Shown: positions 3,750 to 63,550 of the stretch, piece after piece
Position numbering within the stretch: position 1 is the stretch's first letter
Layout: every line of letters begins with the position of its first letter
Source: a virus
Strand: one strand, 5' to 3'
IMG/VR virus record: IMGVR_UViG_3300009503_000030
Coordinates: 6,542-70,541 of that record
DNA length: 64,000 bases
Made by a program: the position numbers and the translations under genes
The notes under the pieces: generated by a model
Told to the model about the DNA's origin: nothing
What the model saw: only the letters and a program-made list of their open reading frames with translations
Database searches by the model: none

Positions 3750-4093
3750 GCCGCAGCCTCCGCGCGCAAGGTCAAGACGCCTACCCTGCCGAGGTGGTGC
3801 CAGACGGACAGCATCCCCGGAACAGGTCCATCTTCGTATTCGATTCGGATGGACATCCGCTCACTTTTGATATCCGCCCCAAACAGTTTCCATCGCGTTC
3901 TGTTGATGGTCAACGTAGGGCGGTCGCCAAACACCGCCCGCGCTTCCTGCCATTGATAGGTGTAGCGCATCAACTTCTCGCGCCACGGCACATCGAAGGT
4001 CAGAGCGACCTTCAACTGCCGTGCCTCCGGCTGTTTCTGCCGGAAACCGGCGGCGATCCCTACCAACCGCGCATCACTGATGGTGAGTGCCAT
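3746..4093 (-). CDS. hypothetical protein
   Basis: RBS AAAGGAGG; coupled to the next gene. Confidence 0.65.
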   Translation of the reverse strand: MALTISDARLVGIAAGFRQKQPEARQLKVALTFDVPWREKLMRYTYQWQEARAVFGDRPTLTINRTRWKLFGADIKSERMSIRIEYEDGPVPGMLSVWHHLGRVGVLTLRAEAAA

Positions 4094-4822: not shown

Positions 4823-5115
4823 CGGTGCCTCCGTGTACGCGCGCGGAGCCGCGCAGCGCAACTGGACCTGCGGTCCTGCATCCGGCCAGGTCCAGGGGCG
4901 AAGAGGTCCTGGATCGGGACGCCAAGCGCGGAGGCAAGAGCGCACAGATGGTCCCCTCGTGGGACATGCTGTTCGTTCTCCCAGAGGCCGACGATGCTCG
5001 TGCTGAGCGAATGGCCGAGAAGGGCGCCGATGCTCTCTGCGAGACGTTGGCGCGTGAGTCCGCGGGCTTCGCGTGCCGCCGCGATCCGGAACCCGCAGAG
5101 GTGGTCTGTGGTCAT
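4819..5115 (-). CDS. XRE-family HTH regulator
   Basis: RIAAAREARGLTRQRLAE...WEN...P...LASALGV. Confidence 0.88.
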   Translation of the reverse strand: MTTDHLCGFRIAAAREARGLTRQRLAESIGALLGHSLSTSIVGLWENEQHVPRGDHLCALASALGVPIQDLFAPGPGRMQDRRSSCAARLRARTRRHR

Positions 5116-7575: not shown

Positions 7576-7820
7576 TCGCGGTGCTCGGATACCCAGGGGG
7601 CTCTTGGTTCGCGTGGCGCCGGTTCCGCGACCGGCGCGCCGCGCGACGGTGGCTCGACGACGGATATCGGGCCATCGTCGAACACACGTCTGGTTTGGCA
7701 CATCCCGCGTGCCGCATCCTCTCCGAGGCAGAGGCGCGCCGGTGGCGGTATTCCGATGGGTCCGGCGTCTTCGAGTGGGGAGACGCCGGTGGGAGGTTGC
7801 CATGCGAAAGAAAGACGTGA
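7572..7820 (+). CDS. hypothetical protein
   Basis: GGAGGTG RBS; GTGA overlap. Confidence 0.5.
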   Translation: MIAVLGYPGGSWFAWRRFRDRRAARRWLDDGYRAIVEHTSGLAHPACRILSEAEARRWRYSDGSGVFEWGDAGGRLPCERKT

Positions 7821-8332
7821 AGGTCGGCGGAGTGTACTACGCCGAGGTGTCGCGGCGCACGGCACGTGTCCAGATCGTGCGTGTATCGCCCTACGGGGGA
7901 TGGGACGCGCGGAACCTGGACACAGGCCGCATGGTCTACTTCCACACGGGACGGCGCATCCACCGTCCCGTCGAGGGGAGGTGCCAGATGTTGAAATACG
8001 TCGTTGAACGCGGCTCCGGCGGTGTCGGGGCCTACGTCGAGGACGGTGCGCGGCGGCTGCCGCTCGACCCGCGCCTAGACTTGGCAGACCACTCGCCGAC
8101 CGGATACGGGTACGGATACGGCGGGTCGGGTCCGGCGCAACTGGCGCTCGCGATCCTCGCGGACGCCCTGCGGCGGGCCTACGGTTCGCGTCGGCGGAGG
8201 GCCGCGGACAAGGCAGCCTTGGACCTGTACCTGTGGTTCAAATGGGACGTAATCGCGGTGCAGACCGCGCTGCGATGGGAGATCACGCACGAGGACGTGA
8301 TGCAGTGGGTGATCTCGCACAGTTGCGACTGA
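7802..8332 (+). CDS. DUF6166-like protein (possible second start at 7988)
   Basis: HSPTGYGYGYGGSGPAQLALAIL; RBS before both 7802 and 7988. Confidence 0.7.
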   Translation: MRKKDVKVGGVYYAEVSRRTARVQIVRVSPYGGWDARNLDTGRMVYFHTGRRIHRPVEGRCQMLKYVVERGSGGVGAYVEDGARRLPLDPRLDLADHSPTGYGYGYGGSGPAQLALAILADALRRAYGSRRRRAADKAALDLYLWFKWDVIAVQTALRWEITHEDVMQWVISHSCD

Positions 8333-8376
8333 CAAGGCGATCCGCGCCGCGAAGCGCGGACCAAAGGAGGATTGCG

Positions 8377-10233
8377 ATGGCAACCAGGAACTGCCGGTAC
8401 GGACTCTTGGCTCCCGTTGAGGGGCGGGACGAGGTGATGCGCCAACTGCGGGTCGCGCACGAGGTCTACAATACGCTCGTCCAGTACGAGCGGGAGCGGC
8501 GGAAGGCGGTGGCCGATGCGACCCGCGAGACCGACGCGGAGGTCGCGCGGCTGGAGGCGGAGGTCGAGGGGCTGCTGTCCCGACTGGCGGACCTGCGTGC
8601 TGCGATCCAGGCGGCACGGGCCGGCGGTGGGGACAACGCGCGTCTCGCGGAGGCCCAGGCGGAGGCGCGCGAGTGCCGGCGGCTGCTTGGAGAGGCGAAG
8701 GGCGCGCTCCGAGAAACCAAGCGGGTCGCGCGGCAGAACCCCGCGCTGCGGGAGCGACTCGAGGCCATCAAGGCCGAACACCATCGGCGTCAACTCGCGC
8801 TCTACCATGAGGTCGTAGAGGTGGGCAAACGGCTGTACTGGCCCTCGTGGAACGACACGAAGGCCGCCGTCGAGCAGGCGGCGAAGAAGACGAAGAACGG
8901 CGACCTGCGGTTCCGGCGGTGGACCGGCGAGGGGAGCCTGTACACCCAGGTCCAAGGGAAGCAACCGGTCTGCGAGACGGCGACCTCGCGCTGGGTCCGG
9001 ATCGACCCAGTGCCGCCCGAGGCGCATGATCCCGCGACGCCGCGCGGAGAGCGCCGGCGTCTGTGCCGGACCCGCTTCTATCTGCGCATCGGGAGCACGG
9101 GTCCACGGGAGGACCCTGTGTTCGCGGTGTTTCCGATGGTCTATCACAGGCCGCTGCCGGAGGGCGCCGTGATCTGCGGGGCGCGGATCGTCCGGCGCAA
9201 GAACGCGGACCGCGAGTACTGGCAGGCCGTGGTGACGGTGGACCTGCCGGATGAGGCCGCGCAGAAGAGCGGGCCGCGCGTCTGTGCGCTCGACATTGGA
9301 TGGCGGGACCGGAGGCCCGGGGGCTCCGACGAGCCGCCGCCGCTGCGAGTCGCGGCCTGGTACGACGGGGACCGGACGGGCGAGGTGCTCGTGGACCCGT
9401 CGGTCTTCGAGCGATGTGCGAAGGCGGACGCGATCCGGAGCACGCGGGACCGGATGCTCGATGACCTGCGGGCGTGGCTCTGCGAGGCGCGCAAGGACCT
9501 TCCCGAGCACTTGGCGGAGGCGCTCGCGGGCTGTGGTCTGTGGCGGGCCGCGGGGAAGTTCGCGCGGCTGCGCGGGCTTCTGAGTTCCGGCGATGTGCCG
9601 GCGGAAGTGCGAGACCGGTTCCTCGCGTGGTATCACCGCGACCGGCACCTTTGGCAATACGAGCACGGCATGAGGTTGAACGCGATCCGCGACCGCGACA
9701 ACGCCTATCGGATCGCGGCGAAGCGGTTCGCCCAGGAGTACGACGTGCTGATCGTCGAGGCGACGGGCACGCCGCAGAAGGAGCGGGACCCGAAGGCGCC
9801 GGCGGCGATGGACCTGCGGCCCTTGATCAAGGAGCCGGACCCCGAGGACGCGCCGCCGCGAGACCAGCAGCGCGAAAGGAAAGAGAACAAGGCGCACCAC
9901 CAGCGGTTCATCGCGGCGGCAGGGACGTTCAGGCGCTACCTGTTGGAAGCCGCGGCCAAGTACGGGACGCGCGTGGTGATGGTTCCGTGCGAGCAGACGA
10001 CGTTGGAGTGCTGGGTCTGCGGGGCGAAGTACGAGTTCGACCGGTGGCCGCTGATGCACGAGTGCGAGTCCTGCGGTACGACCTGGGACCAAGACCAGAA
10101 CGCCGCGCGGAACCTGTTTGCGAGGGGCGCTGTGGCGGCGAAAGGGCCAGGGCCGCTCGAAGTGCAAGGAAAACCGCGACTTCCGCGATGGCATAAGCGC
10201 CACAAAGCGTACCGCGAGGGCGGGGCGGGGTGA
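8377..10233 (+). CDS. cas12m: Type V CRISPR effector, Cas12m (V-M/V-U1)-like, 618 aa
   Basis: YGLLAP, QLRVAH, coiled-coil REC region, LYWPSWN, LRFRRWTGEG, HRPLP, RuvC ALDIGWR / LIVE / DQDQNAARN, Zn finger CWVC...CESC; directly upstream of the array. Confidence 0.88.
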   Translation: MATRNCRYGLLAPVEGRDEVMRQLRVAHEVYNTLVQYERERRKAVADATRETDAEVARLEAEVEGLLSRLADLRAAIQAARAGGGDNARLAEAQAEARECRRLLGEAKGALRETKRVARQNPALRERLEAIKAEHHRRQLALYHEVVEVGKRLYWPSWNDTKAAVEQAAKKTKNGDLRFRRWTGEGSLYTQVQGKQPVCETATSRWVRIDPVPPEAHDPATPRGERRRLCRTRFYLRIGSTGPREDPVFAVFPMVYHRPLPEGAVICGARIVRRKNADREYWQAVVTVDLPDEAAQKSGPRVCALDIGWRDRRPGGSDEPPPLRVAAWYDGDRTGEVLVDPSVFERCAKADAIRSTRDRMLDDLRAWLCEARKDLPEHLAEALAGCGLWRAAGKFARLRGLLSSGDVPAEVRDRFLAWYHRDRHLWQYEHGMRLNAIRDRDNAYRIAAKRFAQEYDVLIVEATGTPQKERDPKAPAAMDLRPLIKEPDPEDAPPRDQQRERKENKAHHQRFIAAAGTFRRYLLEAAAKYGTRVVMVPCEQTTLECWVCGAKYEFDRWPLMHECESCGTTWDQDQNAARNLFARGAVAAKGPGPLEVQGKPRLPRWHKRHKAYREGGAG

Positions 10234-10289
10234 ACCGCTCGAAAAGCGGGACGTAGGTCATTGAAAACATTATCTGTGCTGCGGGTGCT
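10234..10289 (+). promoter_or_regulatory. CRISPR leader with small hairpin and IHF-like site
   Basis: CCGCT-CGAAA-AGCGG hairpin; TAGGTCATTGAAA at 10254-10266 resembles the reverse IHF consensus. Confidence 0.45.
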
Positions 10290-11027
10290 GTGGAAAGGGT
10301 ATCTCTGGACCTTACAATCAGAGACAAAAAGCGCAAGTGAAACGCGCCCTCGACCGGCTGCGGGTGGAAAGGGTATCTCTGGACCTTACAATCAGAGACT
10401 CCGGCGACCGCCAGGATCGGGTACGGGTGCGGGCCGAGTGGAAAGGGTATCTCTGGACCTTACAATCAGAGACTCGAGTGCACCCGACGGCCCCGGACCC
10501 GGTACACCCGCGTGGAAAGGGTATCTCTGGACCTTACAATCAGAGACCTCGCGGTCGGACGGCTACACCCCTGGCTACACCCCGTGGAAAGGGTATCTCT
10601 GGACCTTACAATCAGAGACCCGGACTGGCTCTCCGACGCGCTCTGTGCGCTCGCGAGTGGAAAGGGTATCTCTGGACCTTACAATCAGAGACCGGCGCGA
10701 GCCGCACAACGGACACCCCGCCCCCCGTCGCAAGGGTATCTCGACACCTTCGAAGTCGAGACCGAGTGCCCCGGACCCCGTGCACGTGCGGCAAAGGTAT
10801 CTCGACACCTTGGGAGTCGAGACACGCACCGGCACCGGCGCCGCGTCCGGACGCGAGAGTGGCAAAGGTATCTCGGCACCTTTGAAGTCGAGACGGGGTA
10901 GGTCGCGCCGCACACGCCGCACCGCAGCCGCATGGAAAGGGCATCTCGACGCCTTTGAAGACGAGACATGGTGGCGGCGCATCCAGCCTAGGTTGAAAGG
11001 GCATCTCGACGCCTGTGAGGTCGAGAC
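10290..11027 (+). CRISPR. CRISPR array, 11 repeats of 36 bp and 10 spacers of 24-38 bp
   Basis: Six identical GTGGAAAGGGTATCTCTGGACCTTACAATCAGAGAC at 10290, 10364, 10438, 10512, 10584, 10657, then five variant repeats at 10727, 10788, 10859, 10932, 10992. Confidence 0.98.
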
Positions 11028-11063
11028 GAAGTCGAGACGAATCGGTCGTGCGCGACACGCGGA

Positions 11064-11678
11064 TCAGCGCCGTGGATCGGGCCGTAGCAACTCCGTGCCA
11101 TCCGGAAGGGTGATCGCAAGATTGCCATCTGCACGCTTGCGCCACTCCAACTCCTCGACCCGCGCCCGTACCTCTCCCTCCCCAGGGCCGACCACCAGAT
11201 AGACGCTGTCAACCGGACGACCACGGTGGTGCTGGACCAACAGCGTGCCTGGTGGGAGAGGCCCAGTGATCGTGACACGACGTGTTGATGCGTTGTACGC
11301 ATTGAAAGCGGGCATACGCTCATCGCCGAAGTAGGACCAGGAACTCGCTCCAGGCCGCCAGGCCATCCGATACCACTCAGGGCCGTTCCCCTTTGCATTC
11401 TGGTCTCGCACCGCCGCGCGAATCGAGTAGGTGTGCTCGTCTGGTGGTACGCGGCCTTCCCGCGCGTACTGCGTCGCGAGGGTCAATGGGTCGGGCTTCT
11501 GCGGTGCCGGTGCGGGCTCAGGGGGCGGCTCCTCTGGCTGGACAATCTCTTCGCGCATCGGGTGTGGGATGTCGTCGAGCCGCACCCAGTAGGTCCGCGC
11601 AACTCCATCGCGCCCGACGATCTTGACCGGTACGAGACCAGGGCCAGGCCCGGCGTGAAAGGCTTTCTGCGTGTCCAT
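11064..11678 (-). CDS. hypothetical protein with GLVPV..YWV motif, paralogue of 59606-60277
   Basis: AAGGAGGT RBS; LPPGTL and LPD.T shared with the paralogue. Confidence 0.72.
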   Translation of the reverse strand: MDTQKAFHAGPGPGLVPVKIVGRDGVARTYWVRLDDIPHPMREEIVQPEEPPPEPAPAPQKPDPLTLATQYAREGRVPPDEHTYSIRAAVRDQNAKGNGPEWYRMAWRPGASSWSYFGDERMPAFNAYNASTRRVTITGPLPPGTLLVQHHRGRPVDSVYLVVGPGEGEVRARVEELEWRKRADGNLAITLPDGTELLRPDPRR

Positions 11679-11738
11679 GGCCACCTCCTTCCCAACGTGC
11701 CGCCGTTGCGCAGAGGCAGCGGCACCCATCAGGATAAT

Positions 11739-13379
11739 CTATCGCATGTTCTCTGAGGATGAAAGCCCCAGCAGAAGTTCCTCCACCATGTCCTCGGCGC
11801 TTGCACCAGCGCCATCGAGCAGCCTGTCGGAGAGCTCCTGCTTCGCGATCAAGAGGCTTGCGAGACGCTGGTCAATGGTCCCGTCAATCACCAGGTGGTA
11901 GACGTTCACGGGGTCCGTCTGTCCAAGCCGGTGTATCCGGTCTTCGGCCTGCGTGATGTTTGCCGGAACCCAGTCAAGTTCCGCGAACACGGCGACTCGC
12001 GCGGCGGTCAACGTGAGCCCGACACCTGCCGCGGTAATCGAGCCGATGAAAACGCGGGTTCCGGCGGCTGTCTGAAAACGCTCAACGAGGCCGTCCCGCT
12101 CCTTCTGTGGGGTCTCCCCCGTCAAGACCACGGCCCCGTAGTCCCGTAGCCGTTCTGCCAAGATCGCAATCACGTCCTGATGATGCGCGAAGACCACGAC
12201 CTTCCGCTCGGAGTCGAGGATGTCCGCCACCCACTCCGCGACAACCGGCGCCTTCGCGAGGGCCGTGGTGTGGCGGACGCGGCTGATCTCGGTGAGCGCG
12301 ATACGACGGGCCTCCCGAAGGCGCGCGACCGCCTGGGCGTATGCGGTCGTGTCGTCAGGAGCCGCCTGGACCGCCTCCTGGGAAGGGCATCGCGACGCCT
12401 TGAAGAGCGAGACGTGCAGGGTTCGCAAGCAGAGCCCGTGCTTCTCCCAGAGCACCCGTTCGCAAGACAGGTCCACGGAGTCCGGTGGCGAGAGAATGAC
12501 GAGCGACCGGCGCTTCGGGGGGAGTTGCGACAGCACGTCCCTCTTCAGCCGGCGGATCATGATGGTCTCGCGGAGAATGGATGCGAGTTCCTCGATATTG
12601 GAGGCCCCGTCGGCCCTCCAGATCGAGCGCTGCACGCGGCCCTTCGTCCAGATGGTTTCGGTGTGCCCTGCGCAGTAGCGGACCTCGAACTGATGACGGG
12701 ACCGCCAGCGTCCTGGGTCCAGCGCTTGGAGCGTGGTGTAGAGCTCGGCTGGGCGATTGAGGACTGGGGTCCCCGTCAAGAAGATGCGCCGTGATGCGGC
12801 GTGGACGAGGCCGCGTTGTCCGGCGGACGCCGTGTACCAGCGCCCGTATGCGTTCTTGCGGTAGCGCGGCGGGACGCCGCAGATCGCGCGCGTCTGCTGG
12901 GCGTCGGGGTTCTTCAACCGGTGCGACTCGTCCACAATGAGCAGGTCCCAATGCTGCATGAGCATTGACAGTCGCATTGGATCGCGGACCTGCTCGTAGT
13001 TGGTGATGGCGAGGAGATTGCCGTCGGGCGGCACGGGGCCATCCACGATGACCACATCGAAGGGTCGCACGAGCCAACGGCGCGCCTCGTAGGCCCAGTT
13101 GGTCTTGAGCGTCGCGGGGCAGATTACGAGCACCCGTCGGATCGCGGGGTCCGCGTTGACCAGTCCAAGCGCCTGGATGGTCTTGCCCGTGCCCATCTCG
13201 TCGGCGATCAGAGCGTTTTGTCTCGCAAGACAGAAGGCGATGCCCTCCTCCTGGAAGGGGAGGTAGTGCAACCCGTCGGGAGCGGGGATTGGGGGTCGGG
13301 CGGTGGTGAACGCTGGTTGGGGGGAGAACTTGGGAGGTCCGCCCGACCCCGCGGTGGGTCCAGTGGGGTATCCCATCAT
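11739..13379 (-). CDS. SNF2-family (HARP/SMARCAL1-like) helicase
   Basis: DEMGTGKT, DESH, LTGTP, QAEDRIHRLGQ. Confidence 0.95.
   Translation of the reverse strand: MMGYPTGPTAGSGGPPKFSPQPAFTTARPPIPAPDGLHYLPFQEEGIAFCLARQNALIADEMGTGKTIQALGLVNADPAIRRVLVICPATLKTNWAYEARRWLVRPFDVVIVDGPVPPDGNLLAITNYEQVRDPMRLSMLMQHWDLLIVDESHRLKNPDAQQTRAICGVPPRYRKNAYGRWYTASAGQRGLVHAASRRIFLTGTPVLNRPAELYTTLQALDPGRWRSRHQFEVRYCAGHTETIWTKGRVQRSIWRADGASNIEELASILRETIMIRRLKRDVLSQLPPKRRSLVILSPPDSVDLSCERVLWEKHGLCLRTLHVSLFKASRCPSQEAVQAAPDDTTAYAQAVARLREARRIALTEISRVRHTTALAKAPVVAEWVADILDSERKVVVFAHHQDVIAILAERLRDYGAVVLTGETPQKERDGLVERFQTAAGTRVFIGSITAAGVGLTLTAARVAVFAELDWVPANITQAEDRIHRLGQTDPVNVYHLVIDGTIDQRLASLLIAKQELSDRLLDGAGASAEDMVEELLLGLSSSENMR
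12378..12413 (+). repeat. Solitary CRISPR repeat inside the helicase gene (antisense)
   Basis: CTGGGAAGGGCATCGCGACGCCTTGAAGAGCGAGAC. Confidence 0.8.
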
Positions 13380-13687
13380 CCTCCTTTTCGGCGCGTGATG
13401 CAAGCGCCGTCATCACGATGCGTTCCGACGAGTTCATCGAGGCACACGTCGAGGACATGCGCCAGCAGCACCATGTCGGTGGCCGATGGGACGGTGCGCT
13501 CCGTCTCCCAGTTGGCGATGGTATTGATCGAGACGCGCCGACCGGTGTATTCGGCGAAGGCCGCGGCCAGGTCCTTGCGGCGCCAAGAGCGGGCCTCGCG
13601 ATGGTGGCGGAGAAGCACGCCGCAGAAGGTCTCGACTTTGAAGGCGTCGCGATGCCCTTTCCATTTGGGCCTGTGCATCAGAGACAT
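13376..13687 (-). CDS. XRE-family HTH regulator
   Basis: LRHHREAR...DLA...TIANWE...P...LAHVLDVCLDELVG. Confidence 0.85.
   Translation of the reverse strand: MSLMHRPKWKGHRDAFKVETFCGVLLRHHREARSWRRKDLAAAFAEYTGRRVSINTIANWETERTVPSATDMVLLAHVLDVCLDELVGTHRDDGACITRRKGG
13629..13664 (-). repeat. Solitary CRISPR repeat in the 5' end of the HTH gene (sense)
   Basis: ATGGAAAGGGCATCGCGACGCCTTCAAAGTCGAGAC. Confidence 0.9.
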
Positions 13688-13923
13688 TCGTCGGCCTCCA
13701 ACAGTTCCAACGAGCGTAGCGCCGCGGCCCGTTGTGGCGCGAGTCGCGGGTCGTCCTCGTAGGGTGAGGGACGGTACGGCGGGTGTGGGACGACGGAGAG
13801 GACGGGGCGCAAGGCGTCGAGCACCCGACGCGCCGCCGCGATATCGCGGTCGGACGGTGGTCCAGACAGACGGTCGCCGTACCAGTTGAGGATCACGAGA
13901 TACTCTAGGGCGTCTTGAGTCAT
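13678..13923 (-). CDS. hypothetical protein
   Basis: Coupled to the terminase stop; GAGGTG RBS. Confidence 0.55.
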   Translation of the reverse strand: MTQDALEYLVILNWYGDRLSGPPSDRDIAAARRVLDALRPVLSVVPHPPYRPSPYEDDPRLAPQRAAALRSLELLEADECL

Positions 13924-15869
13924 CAGTACACCTCTGCGACTTCATCAAAATCGCTGAGCGCTGGCAACCCGATCTGCCGCGCCAGGTCCCAGGTGAGGCG
14001 CGTCGGGAACGGGTCTGTGGATTCATCACGAGTTTCAATGGGGCCGGCGGGGGTGAATGCCGTTCGGTTCTTCAAGAGGTTTCCCGCGAGCCAGAACAGG
14101 GACACGTAGAAGCGCGTGAGGCGGCCCTTGTTTGCGAGACGCCGTTTCCTCTGAATCCAGTCGGTGAACATCGGGTCTCGGATTCGGATGAGGTCCTGGG
14201 CGTAGGCGGTGGCTGCTTGATGGTCGGTCAGAGCGATCTCGTAGTTGTGGGTGACGAGTTTGTTGCCGTACTGCGATGGGTCTGTGATCTGCGACTCGTA
14301 GGCGACGTAAGCCTCTGGATTCGTGTGGGTCACGGGGTCGTAGAGGGTGACGTACACGATGTCGTCCCGCACGTAGACCGTGGACATGTTGGAGCGGCCC
14401 CAGATGGCGACCACGTAGGGTCCGGTGAAGGACTGCGTGTCGAGGGTGGCGGTGTCGGCCTCCAGGAGCGCTGGGCGGAGTTGGGTAGCAACGCGCCAGG
14501 CGATGAGCATGGCGCTCACGAGGTCGGGGAGGTGCTTCTCGCGGGTCGTGGCGATGAGCGCCTCGATGAGGTGGGAGAGACCGCTTGCGTCTCGCGCGAA
14601 GAAGAGCCGACCGGCGTTCATCTGGTGCGCCGCGATCTCGAGGTCCCCCCCGACGCGATACACGGAGGCGCCGGTGTGGATGGGGATCACGGCTGTACCT
14701 GGCAGGACATCGGAGAGGAAGGAGGCCACCATATCCTGGACGGCGTTGTTCTCGACGCCGATGACGAGCCTGGGGAAGCGCTCGGAGAGCGCCTTGAGGC
14801 GTCCGACGAGTCCGCCGGCGGTCCAGTGTCCGGAGGCGACGGACAGGACGAAGCAGCGGAGGTCGGAGATGCCGAGCACGCAGATCGCGGACTCGGTGGG
14901 GCCGTTGGGCGCCGCGAGGTCCACGCCGGCGATCACCATGTCCTCGCCAAGCGGGGTCCAGATGCGGGCGTTGTACGCCTGACCGCGAGACCTGGCGAGG
15001 GCGATGGACTCGTCGGTGAAGACGCGGGTATCCTCTTCTGGGGGGAGGGTCAGGAGGTACTGGCGCGCCCATTCTTGCGGCGTGGTCTTCGACTGGCGCT
15101 CGGCTACGCGCTCAGGGGTCCAGTGGGAGGGCCAGAGGGGCGTGCCGCTGTCATCCACAACAGGGAAGGTGCGGGCGACGTATCCGAGGTCGCGGACGAG
15201 GCGGTGCAGCACGTCATCCTTGTGCCACTTGACGCCGACGGCGATCACCCGCCCGACCTCGGAGAGGCGGGTGAGGTACGAGGCGTTGACGAACTCCCAG
15301 ATTTTGTCTCGCTGGTACGCGGTGGCGGTGTTCTGAGGGGACAGGATGTCGTCGAGAATGAGAAGGTCCACGCGCGCTCCAAGAATCTGGCCGTTGATGC
15401 CGATGGCCTGGTACGATGGGTCCTTTGAGACGATGGGCCGTGTAATCGTGAACACGCCGTCGGACCACGGGTGCGCGGGCCGCACGTTCGGGAAGACGCG
15501 GTGGTAGATTTTGTTCCTCTCGACGGTTTCCTTGATGAACCGCCCGAACTTGATGGCCTGGCGTTCGGTGGCCGAGACCACAACGATCCGGAGGTTCGGG
15601 TTGCGAGACAGGACCCATAGAGGGATGAGCTGGGAGCAGTGGACGCTCTTTCCATGCTCCGGTGCGGCCCAGATCACGCTGTATTTCTGCGTGGAGAGGA
15701 GGCGCAACCATTCGTATTGGAAGGGGGCCACCTCGAGCATCCGACCGCGCTCGTCGCGGAAGCAGGTGGACACCCAGATCGGGTAGGACCGGCGGGCGGC
15801 GGGCAGGATGCGCGATTCGAACACGTCTGGGGCGACGTGTGGGCGGAGTGGGGCCTTGAGGTGGTGCAT
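13923..15869 (-). CDS. terL: Terminase large subunit with C-terminal extension
   Basis: APEHGKS Walker A, GARVDLLILDD Walker B, WHKDD, AGVDLA nuclease motif, VENN. Confidence 0.92.
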   Translation of the reverse strand: MHHLKAPLRPHVAPDVFESRILPAARRSYPIWVSTCFRDERGRMLEVAPFQYEWLRLLSTQKYSVIWAAPEHGKSVHCSQLIPLWVLSRNPNLRIVVVSATERQAIKFGRFIKETVERNKIYHRVFPNVRPAHPWSDGVFTITRPIVSKDPSYQAIGINGQILGARVDLLILDDILSPQNTATAYQRDKIWEFVNASYLTRLSEVGRVIAVGVKWHKDDVLHRLVRDLGYVARTFPVVDDSGTPLWPSHWTPERVAERQSKTTPQEWARQYLLTLPPEEDTRVFTDESIALARSRGQAYNARIWTPLGEDMVIAGVDLAAPNGPTESAICVLGISDLRCFVLSVASGHWTAGGLVGRLKALSERFPRLVIGVENNAVQDMVASFLSDVLPGTAVIPIHTGASVYRVGGDLEIAAHQMNAGRLFFARDASGLSHLIEALIATTREKHLPDLVSAMLIAWRVATQLRPALLEADTATLDTQSFTGPYVVAIWGRSNMSTVYVRDDIVYVTLYDPVTHTNPEAYVAYESQITDPSQYGNKLVTHNYEIALTDHQAATAYAQDLIRIRDPMFTDWIQRKRRLANKGRLTRFYVSLFWLAGNLLKNRTAFTPAGPIETRDESTDPFPTRLTWDLARQIGLPALSDFDEVAEVY

Positions 15870-17687: not shown

Positions 17688-18149
17688 GTGTTGCAAGATT
17701 TCTTCAATGCAATAGCACCGCTGATCGCACGGATGGTGCAAGAGGCGGGGATGCTCCCACCAGCGGCGTTCTTGCTGCGCGGGGACGATGTTGCGATCCT
17801 CCCTTTCGTGCCGTTTCGTAGCGACGCTGACAAGGACACGGCGGTCGAGGCCGTCCGCACGGTGGTGCGGCTGAGTCGGGCGCGGTGTGTCCTGTTTGTC
17901 GGCGAGGCATGGGTCGTGAACGTTGCGGGCGAGGTCGAGGACATCGGGAGCATCCAGCCATCCGAGGACCCGCGCCGGCAAGAGATCGTGTTCGTGATCG
18001 GCGAGTCGCCATCGGAGCGCTGTGACTGGGCGGCCCCGATCATCCGCGATGAGCAGGGGGTCCGGCTGGGCGAGTTCGCGGCGTTCCCTGGCGGCGGAGA
18101 GGGCCGGTTTGGCGGCTTTTTCCCGCCGCGTCAAACGGACATCAACTAG
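17688..18149 (+). CDS. hypothetical protein
   Basis: GGAGG RBS; EAW...PSEDP.R.E pattern. Confidence 0.7.
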   Translation: MLQDFFNAIAPLIARMVQEAGMLPPAAFLLRGDDVAILPFVPFRSDADKDTAVEAVRTVVRLSRARCVLFVGEAWVVNVAGEVEDIGSIQPSEDPRRQEIVFVIGESPSERCDWAAPIIRDEQGVRLGEFAAFPGGGEGRFGGFFPPRQTDIN

Positions 18150-18222
18150 GTCGGGGAGGCCGGGCTCGAACCGGCGACATCCTGCTCCCAAAGCAGGCGC
18201 GCTACCACTGCGCTACTCCCCG
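18149..18222 (-). tRNA. tRNA-Pro(UGG), genomic 3' end A-CC-T
   Basis: Acceptor CGGGGAG/CTCCCCG, D-arm GCGC, anticodon arm CCTGC-TT-TGG-GA-GCAGG, T-loop TTCGAGC. Confidence 0.95.
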
Positions 18223-18283
18223 TGCGACGCGCTTGCGCGCACCCACGAACCAGGCCATAATACCAGAGACGGCTGCGGAGGGC

Positions 18284-19690
18284 ATGGTGGTCGTCCGATT
18301 GGTCATCCGAGCGTCTCGCAACCTCACGAAGGCGTTCGTCCCGTCGCCCGATGTGCAGCCAGTCTGGCTCGTCCGGTCCGATGGGCGGGTCCAGCGCTAC
18401 TGGGTGAAGATGGACCGTCTTCAGGCATTGGAGCGCCACCCGATCCCAGTCGGCGTGAAGGGCTACGCGGCGCTGACGCTTCCGAAAGGCGATGCCGTGT
18501 TCGAGGGGGCGCGGAAGGTGGTGCGGACGCTCCGAGACGCCGGATACGAGTGTTGGATCACGGGCGGCGCCGTGCGCAACATGCTGATGGGCCGTCCGGT
18601 GCATGACTACGACATCGTGACCTCCGCGAGACCAGAAGAGGTGCAGAAGGTCTTTCCGAAGACCGTGCCTGTTGGTGCGAAGTTCGGGGTGATCGTTGTG
18701 CATCTACCAGGGCACGGCGACTACGAGGTGGCGACGTATCGAACGGAGTTCGGGTACGCCGATGGACGGCGGCCCGGGGAAGTGCGGTATGCGACCTCCC
18801 TGAAAGAGGACCACGACCGCCGCGACTTCACGATGAACTCGCTGGTCATGGACCCAGAGACGGGCCTCGTCCTGGATATGGCGGGGGGGCTAGAGGACAT
18901 ACGGCGCCACACGATCCGGACCATTGGGGACCCGCGACTCCGGTTCGCAGAGGACCATCTGCGTGCGATGCGCGCGATCCGGTTCGCGGCACAGTTCGGA
19001 TTCGAAATCGAGAAGAGGACGTGGGAGGCGGTGCGGGAGTACGCGCCGGCGCTGCGGCGGATATCGCGCGAGCGGATCAGAGACGAGGTGGGGAAAATCC
19101 TCGACTCGGCGCGGCCAGGACTGGGCTTGCAGTTGCTGGTGCAGTCCGGCGTTCTTGATGTCATCGCGCCGGAGGTTGCGCAGAACATCCAGGGGCGGGT
19201 CAAGGAGGTGGCGGACGCTCTGGATGCGCTGCGAGACGCGGGACCGCTTGCGCGATGGGCCGTGCTTGCATGGCACACAGCGGACCCGCGGCGGTTCATG
19301 CATGGGCTGAAACATGCGGGGGATGCTCGGGAGCGCGTTGGGGCCACGGTGGACACAGCGCACGCGATCCAACACCTGCCTGATCCGGACATGGCGGTCG
19401 AGAAGCGTGTCCTGAGGCGCGACGAGGCGCGTGATGCGCTGGCCGTGCTGCGGGCGCTCGGTCTCAGTCCGGAGGCCGTGAAACATGCAGAGGAGCGGTT
19501 GAGGCGCTGGACGCGGGAGTCCATGTTCCCGCCACGGCTGGTGACGGGGGATGATCTGATTGCCGCCGGCATGAAGCCTGGGCCGGCCATCGGCGAGGCT
19601 CTGCGGCGCGTAGAGGACGAGTGGCTGCGGGGGCACATCCGGACCCGCGCAGAGGCGATGCACATGCTTTTCGATTCGGAAGGTACTTGA
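18284..19690 (+). CDS. cca: Class II tRNA nucleotidyltransferase (CCA/A-adding) with N-terminal extension
   Basis: GGAVRN..DYD, EVATYRTE..Y.DGRRP loop, RRDFTMN, EDHLR, ISRERI.DE, TGDDL..G..PGP.IG. Confidence 0.92.
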   Translation: MVVVRLVIRASRNLTKAFVPSPDVQPVWLVRSDGRVQRYWVKMDRLQALERHPIPVGVKGYAALTLPKGDAVFEGARKVVRTLRDAGYECWITGGAVRNMLMGRPVHDYDIVTSARPEEVQKVFPKTVPVGAKFGVIVVHLPGHGDYEVATYRTEFGYADGRRPGEVRYATSLKEDHDRRDFTMNSLVMDPETGLVLDMAGGLEDIRRHTIRTIGDPRLRFAEDHLRAMRAIRFAAQFGFEIEKRTWEAVREYAPALRRISRERIRDEVGKILDSARPGLGLQLLVQSGVLDVIAPEVAQNIQGRVKEVADALDALRDAGPLARWAVLAWHTADPRRFMHGLKHAGDARERVGATVDTAHAIQHLPDPDMAVEKRVLRRDEARDALAVLRALGLSPEAVKHAEERLRRWTRESMFPPRLVTGDDLIAAGMKPGPAIGEALRRVEDEWLRGHIRTRAEAMHMLFDSEGT

Positions 19691-22540: not shown

Positions 22541-22576
22541 GCGTTGAGGGTATCTCTGGACCTACGAAGCAGAGAC
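22541..22576 (+). repeat. Solitary CRISPR repeat downstream of the capsid gene
   Basis: GCGTTGAGGGTATCTCTGGACCTACGAAGCAGAGAC; TCTCTG/CAGAGA stem intact. Confidence 0.85.
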
Positions 22577-42529: not shown

Positions 42530-42530
42530 G

Positions 42531-44387: not shown

Positions 44388-45028
44388 CCGGCCCTCCCGT
44401 ATCGCGCCTTTCAAGGTGTCGCGATACCCTTTCCACCAGACCATACCTTTCGCGGAACTCCCGCTCAAGTCGGGCGATCTCGGGGTCCGTGATCGCCTCC
44501 AACGGGGGCACGATCTCCTCCGCCGGCGGAGGCTCCGATGCGTATCGTTCCGCGAGCCTGTAGAGCATCAGGAGGCCGATGGGGACCCGTGGCGCCTGGT
44601 CAACGGGGATTCTGCACGGGCTGAACCACCACGATCTGGCGACTCTCTTCGCCGCCTTGTCTATACCGGCGAAAAAAGTCGGCTTCGAACCGCGCCACCT
44701 CCTCCGATACCGCGACGAAGATTTCGGGTCCGAGCTGGTCAAGCGGACGCTTGAACCAGTCTGGCGACTCCTCCACGAGCACTGCGCATCGGGCCATCGC
44801 CAGGAGCAGCGTCTGGATGTCTGCGGGCAACGATTGCCACGCGGCCCCCCGCGCCAGTCCAGAGAGGGCCACCGCCAGTTGCCGCACGTCTTCTGCTGTC
44901 GGTAGCCGCGCGACGAACGTCCCTTCGAGGTCCTCTCCCTTCGGAGACCGGTAGCGGACGGCGAACCGATGCTTTCCATCTGGGATGGCCTCCGCGGTCT
45001 CGCGAACGATGTCCTGGATGGAGGGCAT
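44377..45028 (-). CDS. Tail assembly chaperone (44600-45028) with probable frameshifted extension to 44377
   Basis: Lies between tube and tape measure; slippery TTTTTTC at 44677-44671 with an overlapping +1 ORF. Confidence 0.65.
44401..44436 (-). repeat. Solitary CRISPR repeat 13 nt before the tape-measure start
   Basis: GTGGAAAGGGTATCGCGACACCTTGAAAGGCGCGAT; compensatory GTATCGCG/CGCGATAC stem. Confidence 0.88.
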
Positions 45029-52433: not shown

Positions 52434-52469
52434 ACCTCCTTGTCAAAGGTGTCAAAACACCCTTTCCAC
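52434..52469 (-). repeat. Degenerate solitary CRISPR repeat overlapping the MTase stop and the next RBS
   Basis: GTGGAAAGGGTGTTTTGACACCTTTGACAAGGAGGT; 24 of the first 27 nt match the repeat consensus and the 3' arm is replaced by the RBS. Confidence 0.65.
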
Positions 52470-53390
52470 ATCGCAATCTTCTGCGGATGCACGCTCCATG
52501 TCAAGCCCCTCTTTGAGCGCGTGCCAGCCGCTCTGAAACAGGTGCTCCAGGTGCCGCCGGTTGTTCGGATGAAAGAGCCAGAACCTTGCGAGACGCCGTT
52601 CGGCGAGTGTTTCAGAAAGGGAGTAGTTCGCGTACACGGCCTCGACCTTGCGCGCGGCGCTGCCCATCTTGCGCATCCTCACGCGCGTCCGACGCTCGAA
52701 TCCCAGGGCGTCCAGATACGGATGCTGGTAGTGCGAGAGCAGAACCCGCGCCTTCGCCTCCCGCATCCACTGCACCAGGTCGTGAAAATCGTCTTCGGTC
52801 CAGGTACTGCCGTACTGGTTCGTGCTCTCGTAGTACGGCGGGTCCAGATAGAAGAAGTATCCTTCGCGGTCGTAGTCGCGCGCGACGGCGCGCCAGTCGC
52901 GGCACATCAGCACCGCGCGCCTCAGTTTCGCGGAGATCAGTGCGGCGGTGCGGTACGAGAAGGGTACGGCGGTCCCGCGCGACGCGCGATGCCCGAGGAT
53001 ACCGAAGTAGGCGCACGAGTATCCCGCAAGGACGGCGTAGGCCGCCTCCACCGATGGTCTGTCGTGATGGCGGAGGCTCCCAAGTATCCGTCGCACCACA
53101 TGTTCATCCTCATCGGAGTTGGACTGCTCGCGGAGTCGCCGCGCCAGGTCACGCGCCAGGTCTGGGGCGGCCATGACCCGCCAAACGTTCACCACCATTG
53201 GTGACACGTCGTTCAAGATCAGGTTCTTCGGGTCAACGTTCCTCACGTTGAGGTACACCGTCAGCATCCCCCCGAACGGCTCGACGTAGAACCGATGGTC
53301 TGGGAACCACCGATAAATCCAGGGGATGAGGGCGTATTTGCCGCCAGGGTATTTCACAAGGACCAGCGCGTCTCGCAGTTGCGCGTCCAT
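52452..53390 (-). CDS. Dam-family (D12 class) DNA adenine methyltransferase
   Basis: KYPGGK, YVEPFGG, ILND, FYLDPPY. Confidence 0.92.
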   Translation of the reverse strand: MDAQLRDALVLVKYPGGKYALIPWIYRWFPDHRFYVEPFGGMLTVYLNVRNVDPKNLILNDVSPMVVNVWRVMAAPDLARDLARRLREQSNSDEDEHVVRRILGSLRHHDRPSVEAAYAVLAGYSCAYFGILGHRASRGTAVPFSYRTAALISAKLRRAVLMCRDWRAVARDYDREGYFFYLDPPYYESTNQYGSTWTEDDFHDLVQWMREAKARVLLSHYQHPYLDALGFERRTRVRMRKMGSAARKVEAVYANYSLSETLAERRLARFWLFHPNNRRHLEHLFQSGWHALKEGLDMERASAEDCDVERVF

Positions 53391-53437
53391 CGTGCTGATG
53401 GTATCATGATCTTGGGTTTTGACAAGGTGGCACAACG

Positions 53438-56134: not shown

Positions 56135-56591
56135 ACGGGCGGGTGCGTGGAACACGGTGCGCGGCCTCGAGTGGGCGGCGCTCGTCGTGGCGGCGCTGCT
56201 CGGGGTCGGAGAGGCGATCCTGGGACACGGGGCCGGACTCGTTCCTCCGGCGGTGATCGCGGCAGTAGCCGTCGCGGTCAAGGCGCTGCGCGCGGTGCTC
56301 GCGGTGACCGCCGACGTGCGGTCCTCGACGGTGTCCCCGGCGTCCTGGGCTGTCGCCGTGGTCCTCGCGCTCGTCGGGAGTCTCGCGGGCGAGGTGGCTG
56401 GACAGAAGCAGGAGGTGGTCCATGAAATCACCGTCATCGTGGGTCCGGATGTTGCTGGCGGTGCCGTTCGTGATGCTCTTGACGCCGCTGGTGATCCTGG
56501 TCCAGTGGATCATCTGGGCGGCGGGGACCCTGTAGAAAGATATCTCGACACCTTGGAAGGCGAGACATGCTCCGGCGGGTCCGGAGATTGA
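56118..56591 (+). CDS. Membrane protein (about 3 TM, holin candidate)
   Basis: Three hydrophobic segments; GGAGGT RBS. Confidence 0.6.
   Translation: MGRTFERAGAWNTVRGLEWAALVVAALLGVGEAILGHGAGLVPPAVIAAVAVAVKALRAVLAVTADVRSSTVSPASWAVAVVLALVGSLAGEVAGQKQEVVHEITVIVGPDVAGGAVRDALDAAGDPGPVDHLGGGDPVERYLDTLEGETCSGGSGD
56531..56566 (+). repeat. Solitary CRISPR repeat (variant type)
   Basis: TGTAGAAAGATATCTCGACACCTTGGAAGGCGAGAC. Confidence 0.8.
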
Positions 56592-56639: not shown

Positions 56640-56675
56640 CGCATGAGGGTATCTCTGGACCTTCAGACCAGAGAC
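56640..56675 (+). repeat. Solitary CRISPR repeat (major type) 23 nt before the lipoprotein start
   Basis: CGCATGAGGGTATCTCTGGACCTTCAGACCAGAGAC; TCTCTGG/CCAGAGA stem. Confidence 0.87.
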
Positions 56676-56698
56676 GATGCCGCCAGAGGAGGTACCAG

Positions 56699-56923: not shown

Positions 56924-56926
56924 GCC

Positions 56927-59605: not shown

Positions 59606-60277
59606 CTACGACGGGCTCTCCCCCCTGAGACCCCGTGGATTCCGCCGTGCCGCCTCCGCGGCGGCCCTCTGCACCACCTCCGGCTTTGGATACGGCAGCG
59701 TGACAAGCGTCCTGTCGGGCAGCGCCACATCCAGCCCATCCCCAGGGTCCGCAAAATCCACCCCCACGACCCGCGCCATCCCGCCAGCGTCTCGCGGTGG
59801 AACCATCATCTGGACCTTCTTCACCTTCCCATCAGACCCAAGGTCCGCGATCAACGTGCCTGGCGGCAACGCCGTCAGCGTGCCGTGATACCCCCTCCCA
59901 GCCAGCCTCTGCGGCTCCCGCCAGTTCAACCGCCCAGGGTAGAACACGACCCGCAGCGACCCGTCCTCTGCCTCCGCATGGACCGTGTAGGTGTCCCCGT
60001 CTAACGGCAGCCGCTTCCTACCCGTGAAGTAGTCACACGCCGCCCGCTCCTCCCGCGTCAACCGTGGTATCTCCGCGCGACTCGCGTACCCGACACCAGG
60101 CGCCCCAGCACGCACCCACACCCGCTTCTGGTACGGCGCCCCACGCGACGGATGCACCGTCTGAATCACTGGCACCAACCCAGGACGCCCAGCAATCACG
60201 CCACTGTCTCGACTTTCAAGGCGCCGAGATGTCCCTTTCATCCGGAGCGCGGACACGAAGTACAATGGCCTGCTCAT
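59606..60277 (-). CDS. hypothetical protein with GLVPV..WV motif, paralogue of 11064-11678
   Basis: GGAGGTG RBS; LPPGTL, LPD.T. Confidence 0.65.
   Translation of the reverse strand: MSRPLYFVSALRMKGTSRRLESRDSGVIAGRPGLVPVIQTVHPSRGAPYQKRVWVRAGAPGVGYASRAEIPRLTREERAACDYFTGRKRLPLDGDTYTVHAEAEDGSLRVVFYPGRLNWREPQRLAGRGYHGTLTALPPGTLIADLGSDGKVKKVQMMVPPRDAGGMARVVGVDFADPGDGLDVALPDRTLVTLPYPKPEVVQRAAAEAARRNPRGLRGESPS
60206..60241 (-). repeat. Solitary CRISPR repeat as codons 13-24 of the gene (sense)
   Basis: ATGAAAGGGACATCTCGGCGCCTTGAAAGTCGAGAC. Confidence 0.87.
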
Positions 60278-63335: not shown

Positions 63336-63516
63336 CTCCACAACGGGTCGGGTGCCGGCTTGGCCAGCCGCCAACCTGATCCAGGGAGCAGAGGCTCCCT
63401 CGTGGCAGGTAGGCCCCCCACCGAGGCGCAAGCCTCGACCCCCACAGCCTGCCACCTGGGCGCCAAAGGCCCGGCCCGCCACTCTCATGTGGGGGTCTGC
63501 GGCCATGCCGCGCCTC

Positions 63517-63550
63517 GTGGAAAGGGCATCTCGACCTTCGCGGTCGAGAC
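63517..63550 (+). repeat. Solitary CRISPR repeat (34 bp) directly before the RBS of the replication gene
   Basis: GTGGAAAGGGCATCTCGACCTTCGCGGTCGAGAC then GAAGAAAGGAGAAAGCC-ATG. Confidence 0.9.

Follow-up and report, generated by a model that had tools for sequence, protein, structure and literature searches.

A tailed phage encodes a type V-M CRISPR effector and its array, and carries solitary copies of the array repeat dispersed through its genome

The complete virus IMGVR_UViG_3300009503_000030 carries a gene for a type V-M effector (Cas12m, formerly V-U1), a CRISPR array immediately downstream of this gene and ten solitary copies of the array repeat scattered over the rest of the genome. 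The assignment of the effector is based on a full-length sequence match and on the fold. The protein probably acts as a non-cutting, RNA-guided DNA-binding silencer, and repeat-tagged phage transcripts would be additional ligands for it. The window analysed here is a stretch of 64,000 nucleotides (positions 6,542 to 70,541 of the record), and all coordinates refer to it. The record itself is 70,541 bp long, with direct terminal repeats and a completeness rating of 100%. Genes for the large terminase, portal, major head protein, tail sheath, baseplate and endolysin of a tailed phage are present in the window, and, together with the complete terminally repeated record, they confirm that the effector is phage-borne, as an earlier note on this DNA had stated. 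The same note had found neither cas1 nor cas2 in the window; Cas1 and Cas2 profile searches, for which the positive controls fired, extended this absence to the whole genome. A tyrosine integrase was also missing from the phage genome.

The source runs of the phage carry the label hot-springs metagenome. The locus was recovered identically in two metagenome runs, with the assembly breaking within the array. A third run contained a relative at about 90%, at low depth, with a different sequence between its repeats, which gives a weak hint of spacer turnover. The only capsid relatives were two short contigs with 54% identity. A scan of a genome collection returned 25 Cas12m relatives with at most 32% identity, distributed among many phyla and providing no clue to the host.

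The cas12m gene and its product

The coding sequence of cas12m (8377..10233, plus strand) corresponds to 618 amino acids and a stop codon. It is preceded by a Shine-Dalgarno sequence, AGGAGG (8365..8370, plus strand), read from the sequence at a 6-nt spacing from the ATG, and its GC3 is 0.87. The ATG at 8377 was favoured over the database start at M21 because homologues align beginning at residues 1–7. An antisense ORF (8179–10203), preferred by GC3-based gene calling, was rejected because all the homology lies on the plus strand. The PADLOC Cas12u1 profile matched the protein over its full length (residues 6–584, E=1.7e-85). The best PDB sequence match was the solved Cas12m chain 23vw_A (residues 7–583, E=1.8e-56), and further solved Cas12m chains were found at 2e-20 (Cas12m2) and 1e-18; a paper accompanying entries 23vu, 23vv and 23vw was not found in the literature search. 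A total of 831 cluster representatives matched at E<1e-30.

A structure prediction, which the earlier note had suggested as a check, produced an AlphaFold2 model with a pLDDT of 92.4 and a pTM of 0.90. The four best Foldseek matches of this model were Cas12m cryo-EM structures and not TnpB. Three of these chains had TM-scores of 0.75–0.82, and the fourth gave 0.66/0.78. No other match, Cas12f and TnpB included, exceeded a query-normalised TM of 0.44. The model thus has the Cas12m fold, which is characterised by a REC lobe made of long helices, a WED domain and a split RuvC with the zinc-ribbon TNB. The ORF is real, and the full-length profile and the fold support its earlier reading as Cas12m-like. 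Cas-phi (Cas12j) of huge phages is also a compact type V effector accompanied by an array and devoid of an adaptation module; it is an active nuclease and represents a separate Cas12 branch. Its structures gave query-normalised TM values of about 0.23–0.31 with the phage model. The characterised proteins MmCas12m/Cas12m2 (8hhl, 8hio), GoCas12m (8pm4), MsCas12m and PmCas12m resemble the phage protein in size (approximately 600 amino acids), in their bilobed fold and in the association of RuvC with a zinc-ribbon TNB, the identity to the solved Mm and Go proteins being about 22–23%.

The three catalytic positions that the earlier note had read as an intact RuvC D-E-D triad in the ALDIG, LIVE and DQD motifs were recovered by alignment as D306, E461 and D573. 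The RuvC-I aspartate (codon 9292..9294, plus strand; ALDIG, residues 304–308) falls in a column with 122 D, 19 N and 2 H among the 143 aligned family members. The RuvC-II glutamate (codon 9757..9759, plus strand; LIVE, residues 458–461) is conserved in 130/143, and the RuvC-III aspartate (codon 10093..10095, plus strand; DQD, residues 571–573, in the context DQD-QNAARN) is invariant. The TNB zinc-ribbon cysteines (10009..10074, plus strand) form two CxxC pairs at residues 545–548 and 563–566, each of the four being kept in at least 90% of the family, and the Pfam model Cas12f1-like_TNB matched the protein at 5.1e-13. The charged insertion noticed after the glutamate (residues 462–511; 9760..9909, plus strand; defined by alignment and model) is indeed present. 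It measures 50 amino acids between E461 and residue 512, compared to a family median of 28, and ranks second in length among the 143 proteins. Its residues from about 463 to 480 were modelled with low confidence (pLDDT of about 66 over residues 461–480). Characterised Cas12m proteins likewise have an insertion after RuvC-II, and that of the phage protein is longer. The basic C-terminal tail could also be read from the sequence, with an ordinary length of 45 amino acids beyond D573 (family median 53).

The tally of the triad states among the same 143 members gave DED 121, NED 9, NDD 7, NGD 2 and one each of HSD, HDD, DKD and NAD. In the FastTree phylogeny, another check suggested earlier, the phage protein was placed within a clade of 12 sequences, all D-E-D, with a support of 0.91; the substituted triads formed 10 separate derived groups. 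The protein was therefore nested in the D-E-D majority, not basal, and it did not cluster with ordinary TnpB. MmCas12m has the triad H-D-D (PMC11013384, consulted in part), and its substituted RuvC-I, stated in the earlier note, was also seen in the alignment to the Cas12m2 chains 8hio and 8hhl.

We consider it next to impossible that the protein is an ordinary transposon TnpB with neighbouring repeats unconnected to it. Weak matches to TnpB models do exist in the C-terminal RuvC/TNB part (NF040570 at 5.4e-11, PHROG 'transposase' at 1.3e-11), but matches of this type span just 80–145 residues or so, and NF040570 scored 42.4 bits where the cut-off is 100, over residues 501–582 only. The Cas12m matches, by contrast, are full-length both in sequence and in fold. 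Downstream of the gene lies an array in the same orientation, whose repeats form a covarying pseudoknot of the crRNA type, and the Rfam search of the locus, from 7600 to 14000, gave no omega-RNA or other family. A TnpB identity is refuted by the Cas12m matches in sequence and fold and by the score below the cut-off. The length of 618 amino acids as compared to about 400 and a CRISPR array in place of an omega-RNA do not fit TnpB either.

The array, the repeat handle and the spacers

The array consists of 11 repeats between 10290 and 11027, co-oriented with cas12m, with a period of 72–74 nt. A leader of 56 nt (10234..10289, plus strand) separates the cas12m stop codon from the first repeat, and a similar one exists in a sister phage. 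The proximal array (10290..10692, plus strand) is composed of six identical 36-nt type-1 repeats with spacers S1–S5 of 36–38 nt, and is followed by S6 (34 nt). The distal array (10727..11027, plus strand) contains five diverged type-2 repeats, R7–R11, with spacers S7–S10 of 25, 35, 37 and 24 nt, respectively. The changes in the stems of the type-2 repeats are compensatory. Over 14 repeat sequences, 92.2% of the cells of the repeat pseudoknot were paired, compared to 27–47% when the partners were slid. Compensatory changes affected 5 of the 12 pairs, and the observed covariation score was reached by none of 500 shuffles. The handle shows the same interleaved two-stem topology as the crRNA of PmCas12m, described in the accessible part of a preprint (bioRxiv 10.64898/2026.03.26.714355). 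Characterised Cas12m systems also have a 36-nt repeat with a two-stem handle and a co-oriented downstream array.

The type-1 repeats fit a sigma-70-like pattern, TGGAAA-N16-TACAAT. The -10-like element is missing from the type-2 units and from the type-1 repeat of the sister phage; given its absence there, a promoter inside the type-1 repeats was judged incidental.

No convincing protospacer for the 10 spacers was found in the whole phage genome with blastn-short, the best match being 20 nt with one mismatch near the genome end. Every blastn match of the array region to GenBank phages and PLSDB plasmids, in the 'distant' mode, had an E-value of at least 0.2. Seed-anchored matches elsewhere in the genome were also searched with 20 sequences (the flanks of nine units, the 10 spacers and the sequence following the last repeat). 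They were not enriched overall, with 35 observed and 26 +/- 7.7 in shuffles. Guides of the crlRNA type were defined by a flanking pseudo-spacer that matches the gene under control, or its promoter, at no fewer than 9–11 PAM-proximal positions. The 3' flank of the solitary unit U1 has a 14-nt seed-anchored, PAM-proximal match within codons 461–468 of cas12m, with the 5' flank CGCTC. This match is marginal: P was 0.011 when shuffled guides served as the control and 0.071 with random 24-mers of the genome.

Solitary repeat units and their counterparts in other viruses

An nhmmer profile made from the array repeats alone detected 10 solitary copies outside the array, with scores from 11.9 to 28.5 bits; the maximum in 20 shuffled genomes was 8.9 bits, and none reached 10. 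The highest-scoring unit, U1 (13629..13664, minus strand, 28.5 bits), is intergenic and in sense, 14 nt past a small gene and 253 nt ahead of the start of a helicase gene. U2 (56531..56566, plus strand, 25.6 bits) lies 73 nt upstream of U7 (56640..56675, plus strand, 16.8 bits), a type-1 unit itself located 23 nt upstream of the Shine-Dalgarno-supported ATG at 56699, and the two share one leader. U4 (63515..63550, plus strand, 23.7 bits) and U5 (44401..44436, minus strand, 22.0 bits) are situated 17 and 13 nt, respectively, upstream of a supported ATG, that of a 618-residue tail-module gene in the case of U5. U6, also of type 1 (22541..22576, plus strand, 21.9 bits), occupies the gap following the major head protein gene. 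The context of U3 (60206..60241, minus strand, 24.0 bits), inside a weak ORF call, is uncertain, and U8 (12378..12413, plus strand, 16.1 bits) is antisense within a SNF2-type helicase gene. The partial U10 (52434..52469, minus strand), the weakest at 11.9 bits, overlaps the 3' end of a methyltransferase gene; a Shine-Dalgarno sequence replaces its 3' part, and an ATG follows 5 nt further on.

The placement of the units is strongly biased to sense-strand gaps. Five of them (U4, U5, U7, U9 and U10) are on the sense strand, 5–23 nt upstream of a Shine-Dalgarno-supported ATG, and with U2 a total of six units occupy the sense-strand leaders of five genes. The non-coding status of U2, U5, U7 and U10 depends on the supported starts, as maximal-ORF calls overlap these units. 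A type V-M system is expected to need no tracrRNA; the reverse-oriented copies U1, U3, U5 and U10 are in sense orientation relative to minus-strand genes. The solitary units are closer to the diverged distal repeats R7–R11 than to the proximal ones. Both stems are preserved in them by compensation, with a U-A to C-G change at the closing pair of stem I and the pair TCGC/GCGA in U8.

The sister phage has one solitary unit (41.5 bits), syntenic with U2. Its cas12m is split by a frameshift, so that the gene may be dispensable or the assembly in error. An unrelated virus with 39% GC has four to five repeat units near its own cas12m; they follow -10-like elements, and one is located 28 nt ahead of the cas12m ATG. 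A motif scan for the phage repeat matched only the sister phage in the viral collection. The scan of the metagenome collection returned six short contigs, including two array fragments and one array beside a distant cas12m fragment.

Virus-borne Cas12m was found in 73 IMG/VR loci and in one GenBank virus. A review from 2024 and a preprint from 2026 mention the association, which is therefore already known and not new. Among the other viral loci, 48/72 have the gene-then-array layout with related 36-nt repeats. Within 4 kb on either side of most of these loci, profiles built from each own array revealed array extensions, and no solitary units were seen. The sensitivity of this survey is low, because the divergent units of locus L066, found with the model R1, were missed.

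Proposed function and relation to known systems

By analogy with characterised members, Cas12m would cut its own pre-crRNA within the repeat and retain the 5' handle, which would be the two-stem pseudoknot. A guide of approximately 17–20 nt would then direct the binding of PAM-flanked double-stranded DNA without a cut, and transcription or replication of the bound target would be blocked. The likeliest targets on a phage would be competing mobile elements, and an action against such elements or host genes, as proposed in the earlier note, is plausible. The solitary copies are putative Cas12m-binding RNA elements. They may yield crRNA-like regulatory guides, or they may tag phage mRNAs so that Cas12m binds or processes them beside the ribosome-binding site.

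We tentatively propose a more specific model, a control circuit in which the phage would use its own Cas12m to recognise crRNA-handle pseudoknots in about 10 transcript leaders beside ribosome-binding sites. Cas12m might process or occlude the leaders and in this way determine when tail, lysis and replication genes are translated. A leader might also, and not exclusively, give rise to a guide RNA that silences its gene in relatives co-infecting the cell. The resident copy would escape such a guide because it is flanked by the repeat and lacks a PAM. The recurrence of units in the unrelated 39%-GC virus suggests that the circuit would not be a one-off.

The intact triad could alternatively belong to a working nuclease which cuts or nicks its target or acts in trans, destroying competitors rather than silencing them. 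D306, E461, D573 and the zinc ribbon are all intact, and the active-site columns are strongly conserved in the family. The published negative assays covered a few orthologues and were performed at 37 °C (PMC11013384), and the phage comes from runs with a hot-springs label. The strong conservation of the triad sits badly with an idle RuvC, and a nuclease activity missed by the published assays may exist. In the part of that study consulted (Bigelyte et al. 2024, PMC11013384), however, orthologues with D-E-D, H-D-D and N-D-D triads all bound double-stranded DNA and none cleaved it. This included the four D-E-D orthologues tested, MsCas12m and three more, which share the triad with the phage protein; purified MsCas12m showed neither target nor collateral cleavage. 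The nested position of the phage protein and a fold resembling non-cutting Cas12m complexes (TM of about 0.8) also argue against cleavage, which we regard as unlikely. The interpretation in the earlier note was borne out as to the Cas12m family, the phage, the triad and the lack of an adaptation module. Its further suggestion of a nuclease-competent intermediate between TnpB and Cas12m is unsupported, because D-E-D is the state of the family majority and the protein nests in an all-D-E-D clade; the tested orthologues with this triad do not cut.

The solitary units might, on the other hand, be RNA decoys or hijacking guides that act on a V-M system belonging to the host or to a rival element, and not partners of the phage's own Cas12m. 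Racr RNA anti-CRISPRs, solitary viral units imitating the repeats of the host, are widespread, intergenic and often located right after a promoter (PMC10651486, accessible part), as are the units behind -10-like elements in the 39%-GC virus. Viral crRNA-like RNAs (Cracr) reprogram the host Cas12a to repress its own gene, according to the portion seen of bioRxiv 10.1101/2024.10.29.618823, and the match of U1 to cas12m would fit such a guide. But Racr and Cracr units are recognised as mimics of host repeats in viruses without the cognate cas gene, and those described in the part seen of PMC10651486 are not cas-associated, whereas here the array that the units match and its effector are both encoded by the phage itself. 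The repeat was found elsewhere in relatives only, namely in the sister phage and in the six short metagenome matches. Most units form part of mRNA leaders, beside ribosome-binding sites, rather than small genes of their own, and the U1 match is marginal. A decoy role appears improbable. It is still less probable that the units have no RNA function and are debris of array recombination, or a DNA motif such as a promoter shared with the distal repeats. Their resemblance to R7–R11 and the sigma-70-like pattern of the type-1 repeats would be in agreement with such an origin. The compensatory changes within the units themselves, their biased placement and the absence of the -10-like element from the type-2 units and the sister-phage repeat speak against it. 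The motif should be considered a CRISPR repeat first, because the same repeat architecture flanks cas12m in unrelated viruses.

A close published case is MvCas12m from the myxophage lineage MV-1, here compared by description from the accessible part of the preprint (bioRxiv 10.64898/2026.09.14.751636). It is likewise a D-E-D Cas12m beside an array on a phage, with no cas1, cas2, cas4, tracrRNA or protospacers reported as found. The protein has 610 amino acids with D305/E463/D555, compared to 618 with D306/E461/D573 here. MV-1 differs by its reported eight spacers and single repeat type, its predicted temperate lifestyle with an integrase and its origin in wastewater biofilm, and that part of the preprint does not mention solitary repeats. 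Relative to the characterised Cas12m systems of plasmids and chromosomes, the gene is on a tailed phage, which carries cognate solitary repeats all over its genome. A stand-alone repeat with a short guide reprograms the effector to repress genes, often cas itself, in the crlRNA, CreR and CreA systems, in V-A units upstream of cas12a and in viral Cracr. The U1 match and the unit 28 nt before the cas12m ATG of the 39%-GC virus recall such guides. The published cases are of type V-A and type I, with V-M not among them in these sources, and their units are in or beside cas loci or on viruses without an effector, whereas those of the present phage are genome-wide in a virus encoding its effector.

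The effector alone is thus one more D-E-D Cas12m, and the dispersed cognate repeats are the unusual feature. The 73 IMG/VR loci indicate that virus-borne V-M is common and was present in databases before the 2026 "first report". It is puzzling that D-E-D is so strongly conserved although the family members tested so far leave DNA uncut, and a hot-spring orthologue is suited to examining this. If Cas12m binds the dispersed repeats, the phage would apply a CRISPR effector to its own transcripts or use them as a built-in source of guides. The protein would then also provide a compact, possibly thermostable regulator of the CRISPRi type, multiplexed by nature and working with defined RNA tags. This would be a new viral use of a CRISPR effector, and would join three fields that are now separate, those of CRISPR systems encoded by viruses, of regulatory crRNA-like RNAs and of anti-CRISPRs made of solitary repeats.

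The cas12m gene and its product

The cas12m ORF (8377–10233, + strand, 618 aa, GC3 of 0.87) is preceded by an AGGAGG, read from the sequence 6 nt before the ATG at 8377. The ORF is real, and the ALDIG (D306), LIVE (E461) and DQD (D573) motifs were found where the earlier note had placed them, together with two CxxC pairs. A GC3-based gene caller favoured instead an antisense ORF (8179–10203, − strand, 674 aa) overlying nearly all of cas12m; this candidate was without homology and was rejected as a high-GC artefact.

The Cas12m architecture ascribed to the product was borne out by both sequence and fold. The PADLOC Cas12u1 model covered the protein over its full length (E = 1.7e-85), and the top PDB sequence match was the solved Cas12m 23vw_A (1.8e-56, residues 7–583), with other solved Cas12m proteins among the best matches (Cas12m2, 2e-20; UnCas12m4a, 1e-18). 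Pfam recognized only a Cas12f1-like TNB domain, and the similarity to TnpB was confined to approximately 80 C-terminal residues. The AlphaFold2 model, computed from a 143-sequence input alignment (pLDDT 92.4, pTM 0.90), was closest to Cas12m complexes and not to Cas12f or TnpB. Such complexes made up the four top Foldseek matches, three chains having TM scores of 0.75–0.82 and the other one 0.66/0.78, whereas the remaining matches, Cas12f and TnpB among them, had query-normalised TM scores of at most 0.44.

The family alignment comprised 143 sequences, the phage protein and 142 of the 150 best cluster representatives; the window's own protein entry and seven short or fragmentary entries were left out. 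The insertion noticed after the Glu is present and unusually long: 50 aa follow Glu461 where the family median is 28, the second-highest value among the 143. The length of the C-terminal tail is ordinary. The D-E-D triad was found in 121 of the 143 members, D573 being invariant. In a FastTree tree built on 589 columns, the phage protein fell within a Cas12m clade of 12 members, all D-E-D (support 0.91), its sister being a metagenomic protein 48% identical to it. Substituted triads formed 10 separate groups. Bigelyte et al. 2024 (PMC11013384) selected eight orthologues, of which four were D-E-D, two were H-D-D and two were N-D-D, and none cleaved dsDNA; for MsCas12m, which is D-E-D, both target and collateral cleavage were absent. 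Because the triad is this common and the tested D-E-D orthologues do not cut, an intact triad is the normal state of the Cas12m family and no predictor of nuclease activity. The D-E-D argument of the earlier note, which had led to the guess of a nuclease-competent form between TnpB and Cas12m, thus fails, and the protein, nested in a D-E-D clade, does not represent a step toward TnpB.

The phage and its CRISPR array

The virus record (70,541 bp) has direct terminal repeats and is rated complete. Encoded in the window are the large terminase, portal, major head protein, protease, tail sheath, baseplate and endolysin. The virus is a tailed phage, and the type V-M locus that it carries is genuine. 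The absence of cas1 and cas2, remarked on from the window, extends to the whole virus record, in which profiles for Cas1, Cas2 and tyrosine integrase found no match while control genomes responded. The locus was recovered nearly entire in two runs labelled hot-springs metagenome. Elsewhere in the window, tRNA-Pro(TGG) (18149–18222, −) adjoins a gene for a CCA-adding-type tRNA nucleotidyltransferase (18233–19690, +), and there are three phage DNA methyltransferase genes (2–607, 604–1377 and 52452–53435, all −). Each of the three runs shows a spike in contig depth at 13025–13225 (35, 23 and 101, compared to about 8–15) with many loose ends, which is likely due to a conserved helicase motif common to other organisms.

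A 56-nt leader separates the cas12m stop codon from the array. The proximal part has six identical 36-nt repeats (type-1) with spacers of 36–38 nt between them and one of 34 nt after the sixth; the distal part has five diverged repeats (type-2) separated by spacers of 25, 35, 37 and 24 nt. In the diverged repeats the main stem is altered on both sides, from TCTCTG/CAGAGA to TCTCGAC/GTCGAGA. A two-stem pseudoknot fitted to 14 repeat sequences had 92.2% of its cells paired, against 27–47% when the partners were slid. Compensatory changes affected five of the 12 pairs, and the observed covariation score was reached in none of 500 shuffles. The interleaved topology is that given for the PmCas12m crRNA in bioRxiv 10.64898/2026.03.26.714355. 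No array target was found in the phage itself, GenBank phages or PLSDB plasmids.

Several other features of the array were observed. Spacers S3 (10474–10511) and S7 (10763–10787) are 79% identical over 29 nt, S7 resembling S3 minus an internal stretch, which may reflect an intra-array duplication or the acquisition of two spacers from variant targets. A sigma-70-like TGGAAA-N16-TACAAT is present in every type-1 repeat (10291–10685), accounting for six of the seven sites in the region, with 0.4 expected; the type-1 repeat of the sister phage is without the −10 element. For window positions 10399–10967, run X3, labelled microbial-mat metagenome, contains a relative approximately 90% identical, at a low depth of about 2.4, with different inter-repeat sequence, such as 37 nt that separate a type-2 repeat from a type-1 repeat. 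An array fragment at 1–374 of a 1.3-kb metagenome contig (L120), 68% identical to the distal array, has six mutually different repeats with the stems kept.

Cas12m loci of other viruses

Scanning IMG/VR showed members of the Cas12m family encoded at 73 distinct loci. Related 36-nt repeats of equal period lie directly downstream of such genes in other viral contigs, and a downstream array was present at 48 of the 72 viral loci examined (seed criterion). In the GenBank Virus Rctr197k, an annotated 1.5-kb CRISPR region adjoins a gene of 31.8% identity that bears the annotation "similar to transposase". A September 2026 preprint (bioRxiv 10.64898/2026.09.14.751636) claims the first phage Cas12m, MvCas12m, a distinct protein of 610 aa (D305/E463/D555) with eight spacers. 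The novelty of a phage-borne Cas12m therefore holds only in part.

Repeat motif scans matched only the sister phage and a few short metagenomic fragments. Between the two phages, cas12m identity is 92% at the protein level and 88% at the DNA level, and both repeat types are shared. The sister gene (44–1904 in contig L002, 39875–41735 in G001) is split by a frameshift into overlapping ORFs (44–1363 and 1251–1904), and is either a pseudogene or an assembly error. One large virus (G005, a 113.7-kb IMG/VR record) has three separate arrays of V-M-type repeats, at about 42084–42547 (−), 56677–57285 (+) and 93670–94573 (+).

Solitary repeat units

An nhmmer profile made from the array repeats only, run over the whole genome, detected ten further units outside the array (U1–U10), scoring 11.9–28.5 bits; in 20 shuffled genomes the top score was 8.9 bits and none reached 10. 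This search is the independent evidence for the units, since the repeat covariance model was trained with eight of them and its scores for them are circular. Both stems are kept, partly through compensatory changes. Nine units lie inside the window, and U9 (4906–4941 of the virus record) about 1.6 kb ahead of its start. U4, U5, U7, U9 and U10 are on the sense strand, 5–23 nt upstream of an ATG supported by a Shine-Dalgarno (SD) sequence. U2 shares the leader of U7, U1 and U6 are sense-oriented in gaps, U8 is antisense within the helicase gene, and U3 falls in a weakly called ORF. With at most 14% of the genome non-coding by maximal-ORF calls, the location of eight of the ten units in gaps has a binomial P of about 5e-6, presuming SD-supported starts for four units. 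That cognate repeats stand alone in the leaders of phage mRNAs is a statistically solid observation.

At the site syntenic with U2/U7, a strong unit is present in the sister phage. An unrelated virus of 39% GC (L066, a 40-kb IMG/VR contig, units at 5033–5068 and 3925–3960) has units directly past −10-like elements. One unit of this virus is within the cas12m coding sequence, with the compensated stem TCCCC/GGGGA; another is 28 nt before the cas12m ATG, directly past a TGnTATGAT-like −10 element. At most other viral Cas12m loci, a low-sensitivity survey within ±4 kb showed array extensions only.

The units are most simply read as additional candidate RNA ligands of the phage's own Cas12m. They might serve as crRNA-like regulatory guides: the 3′ flank of U1 has a 14-nt anchored match to the antisense of cas12m codons 461–468, with the 5′ flank CGCTC. 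This match is of marginal significance, P being 0.011 with shuffled guides as the control and 0.071 with random genomic 24-mers, and anchored matches overall were not enriched (35 compared to 26 ± 7.7). Alternatively, the units could be places next to ribosome-binding sites where the RNA is bound or processed. Known analogues are the regulatory repeat-like RNAs of V-A and type I loci (bioRxiv 10.1101/2023.03.03.530964), viral Cracr RNAs (bioRxiv 10.1101/2024.10.29.618823) and Racr solitary repeats (PMC10651486). The literature text covered by the analysis mentions neither V-M units, for which supplementary tables might hold entries, nor units dispersed through a virus encoding the cognate effector.

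By analogy, the phage Cas12m most likely silences its targets in mobile-element conflicts by RNA-guided DNA binding, without cutting. What the analysis adds beyond the effector itself is the family of solitary repeats.
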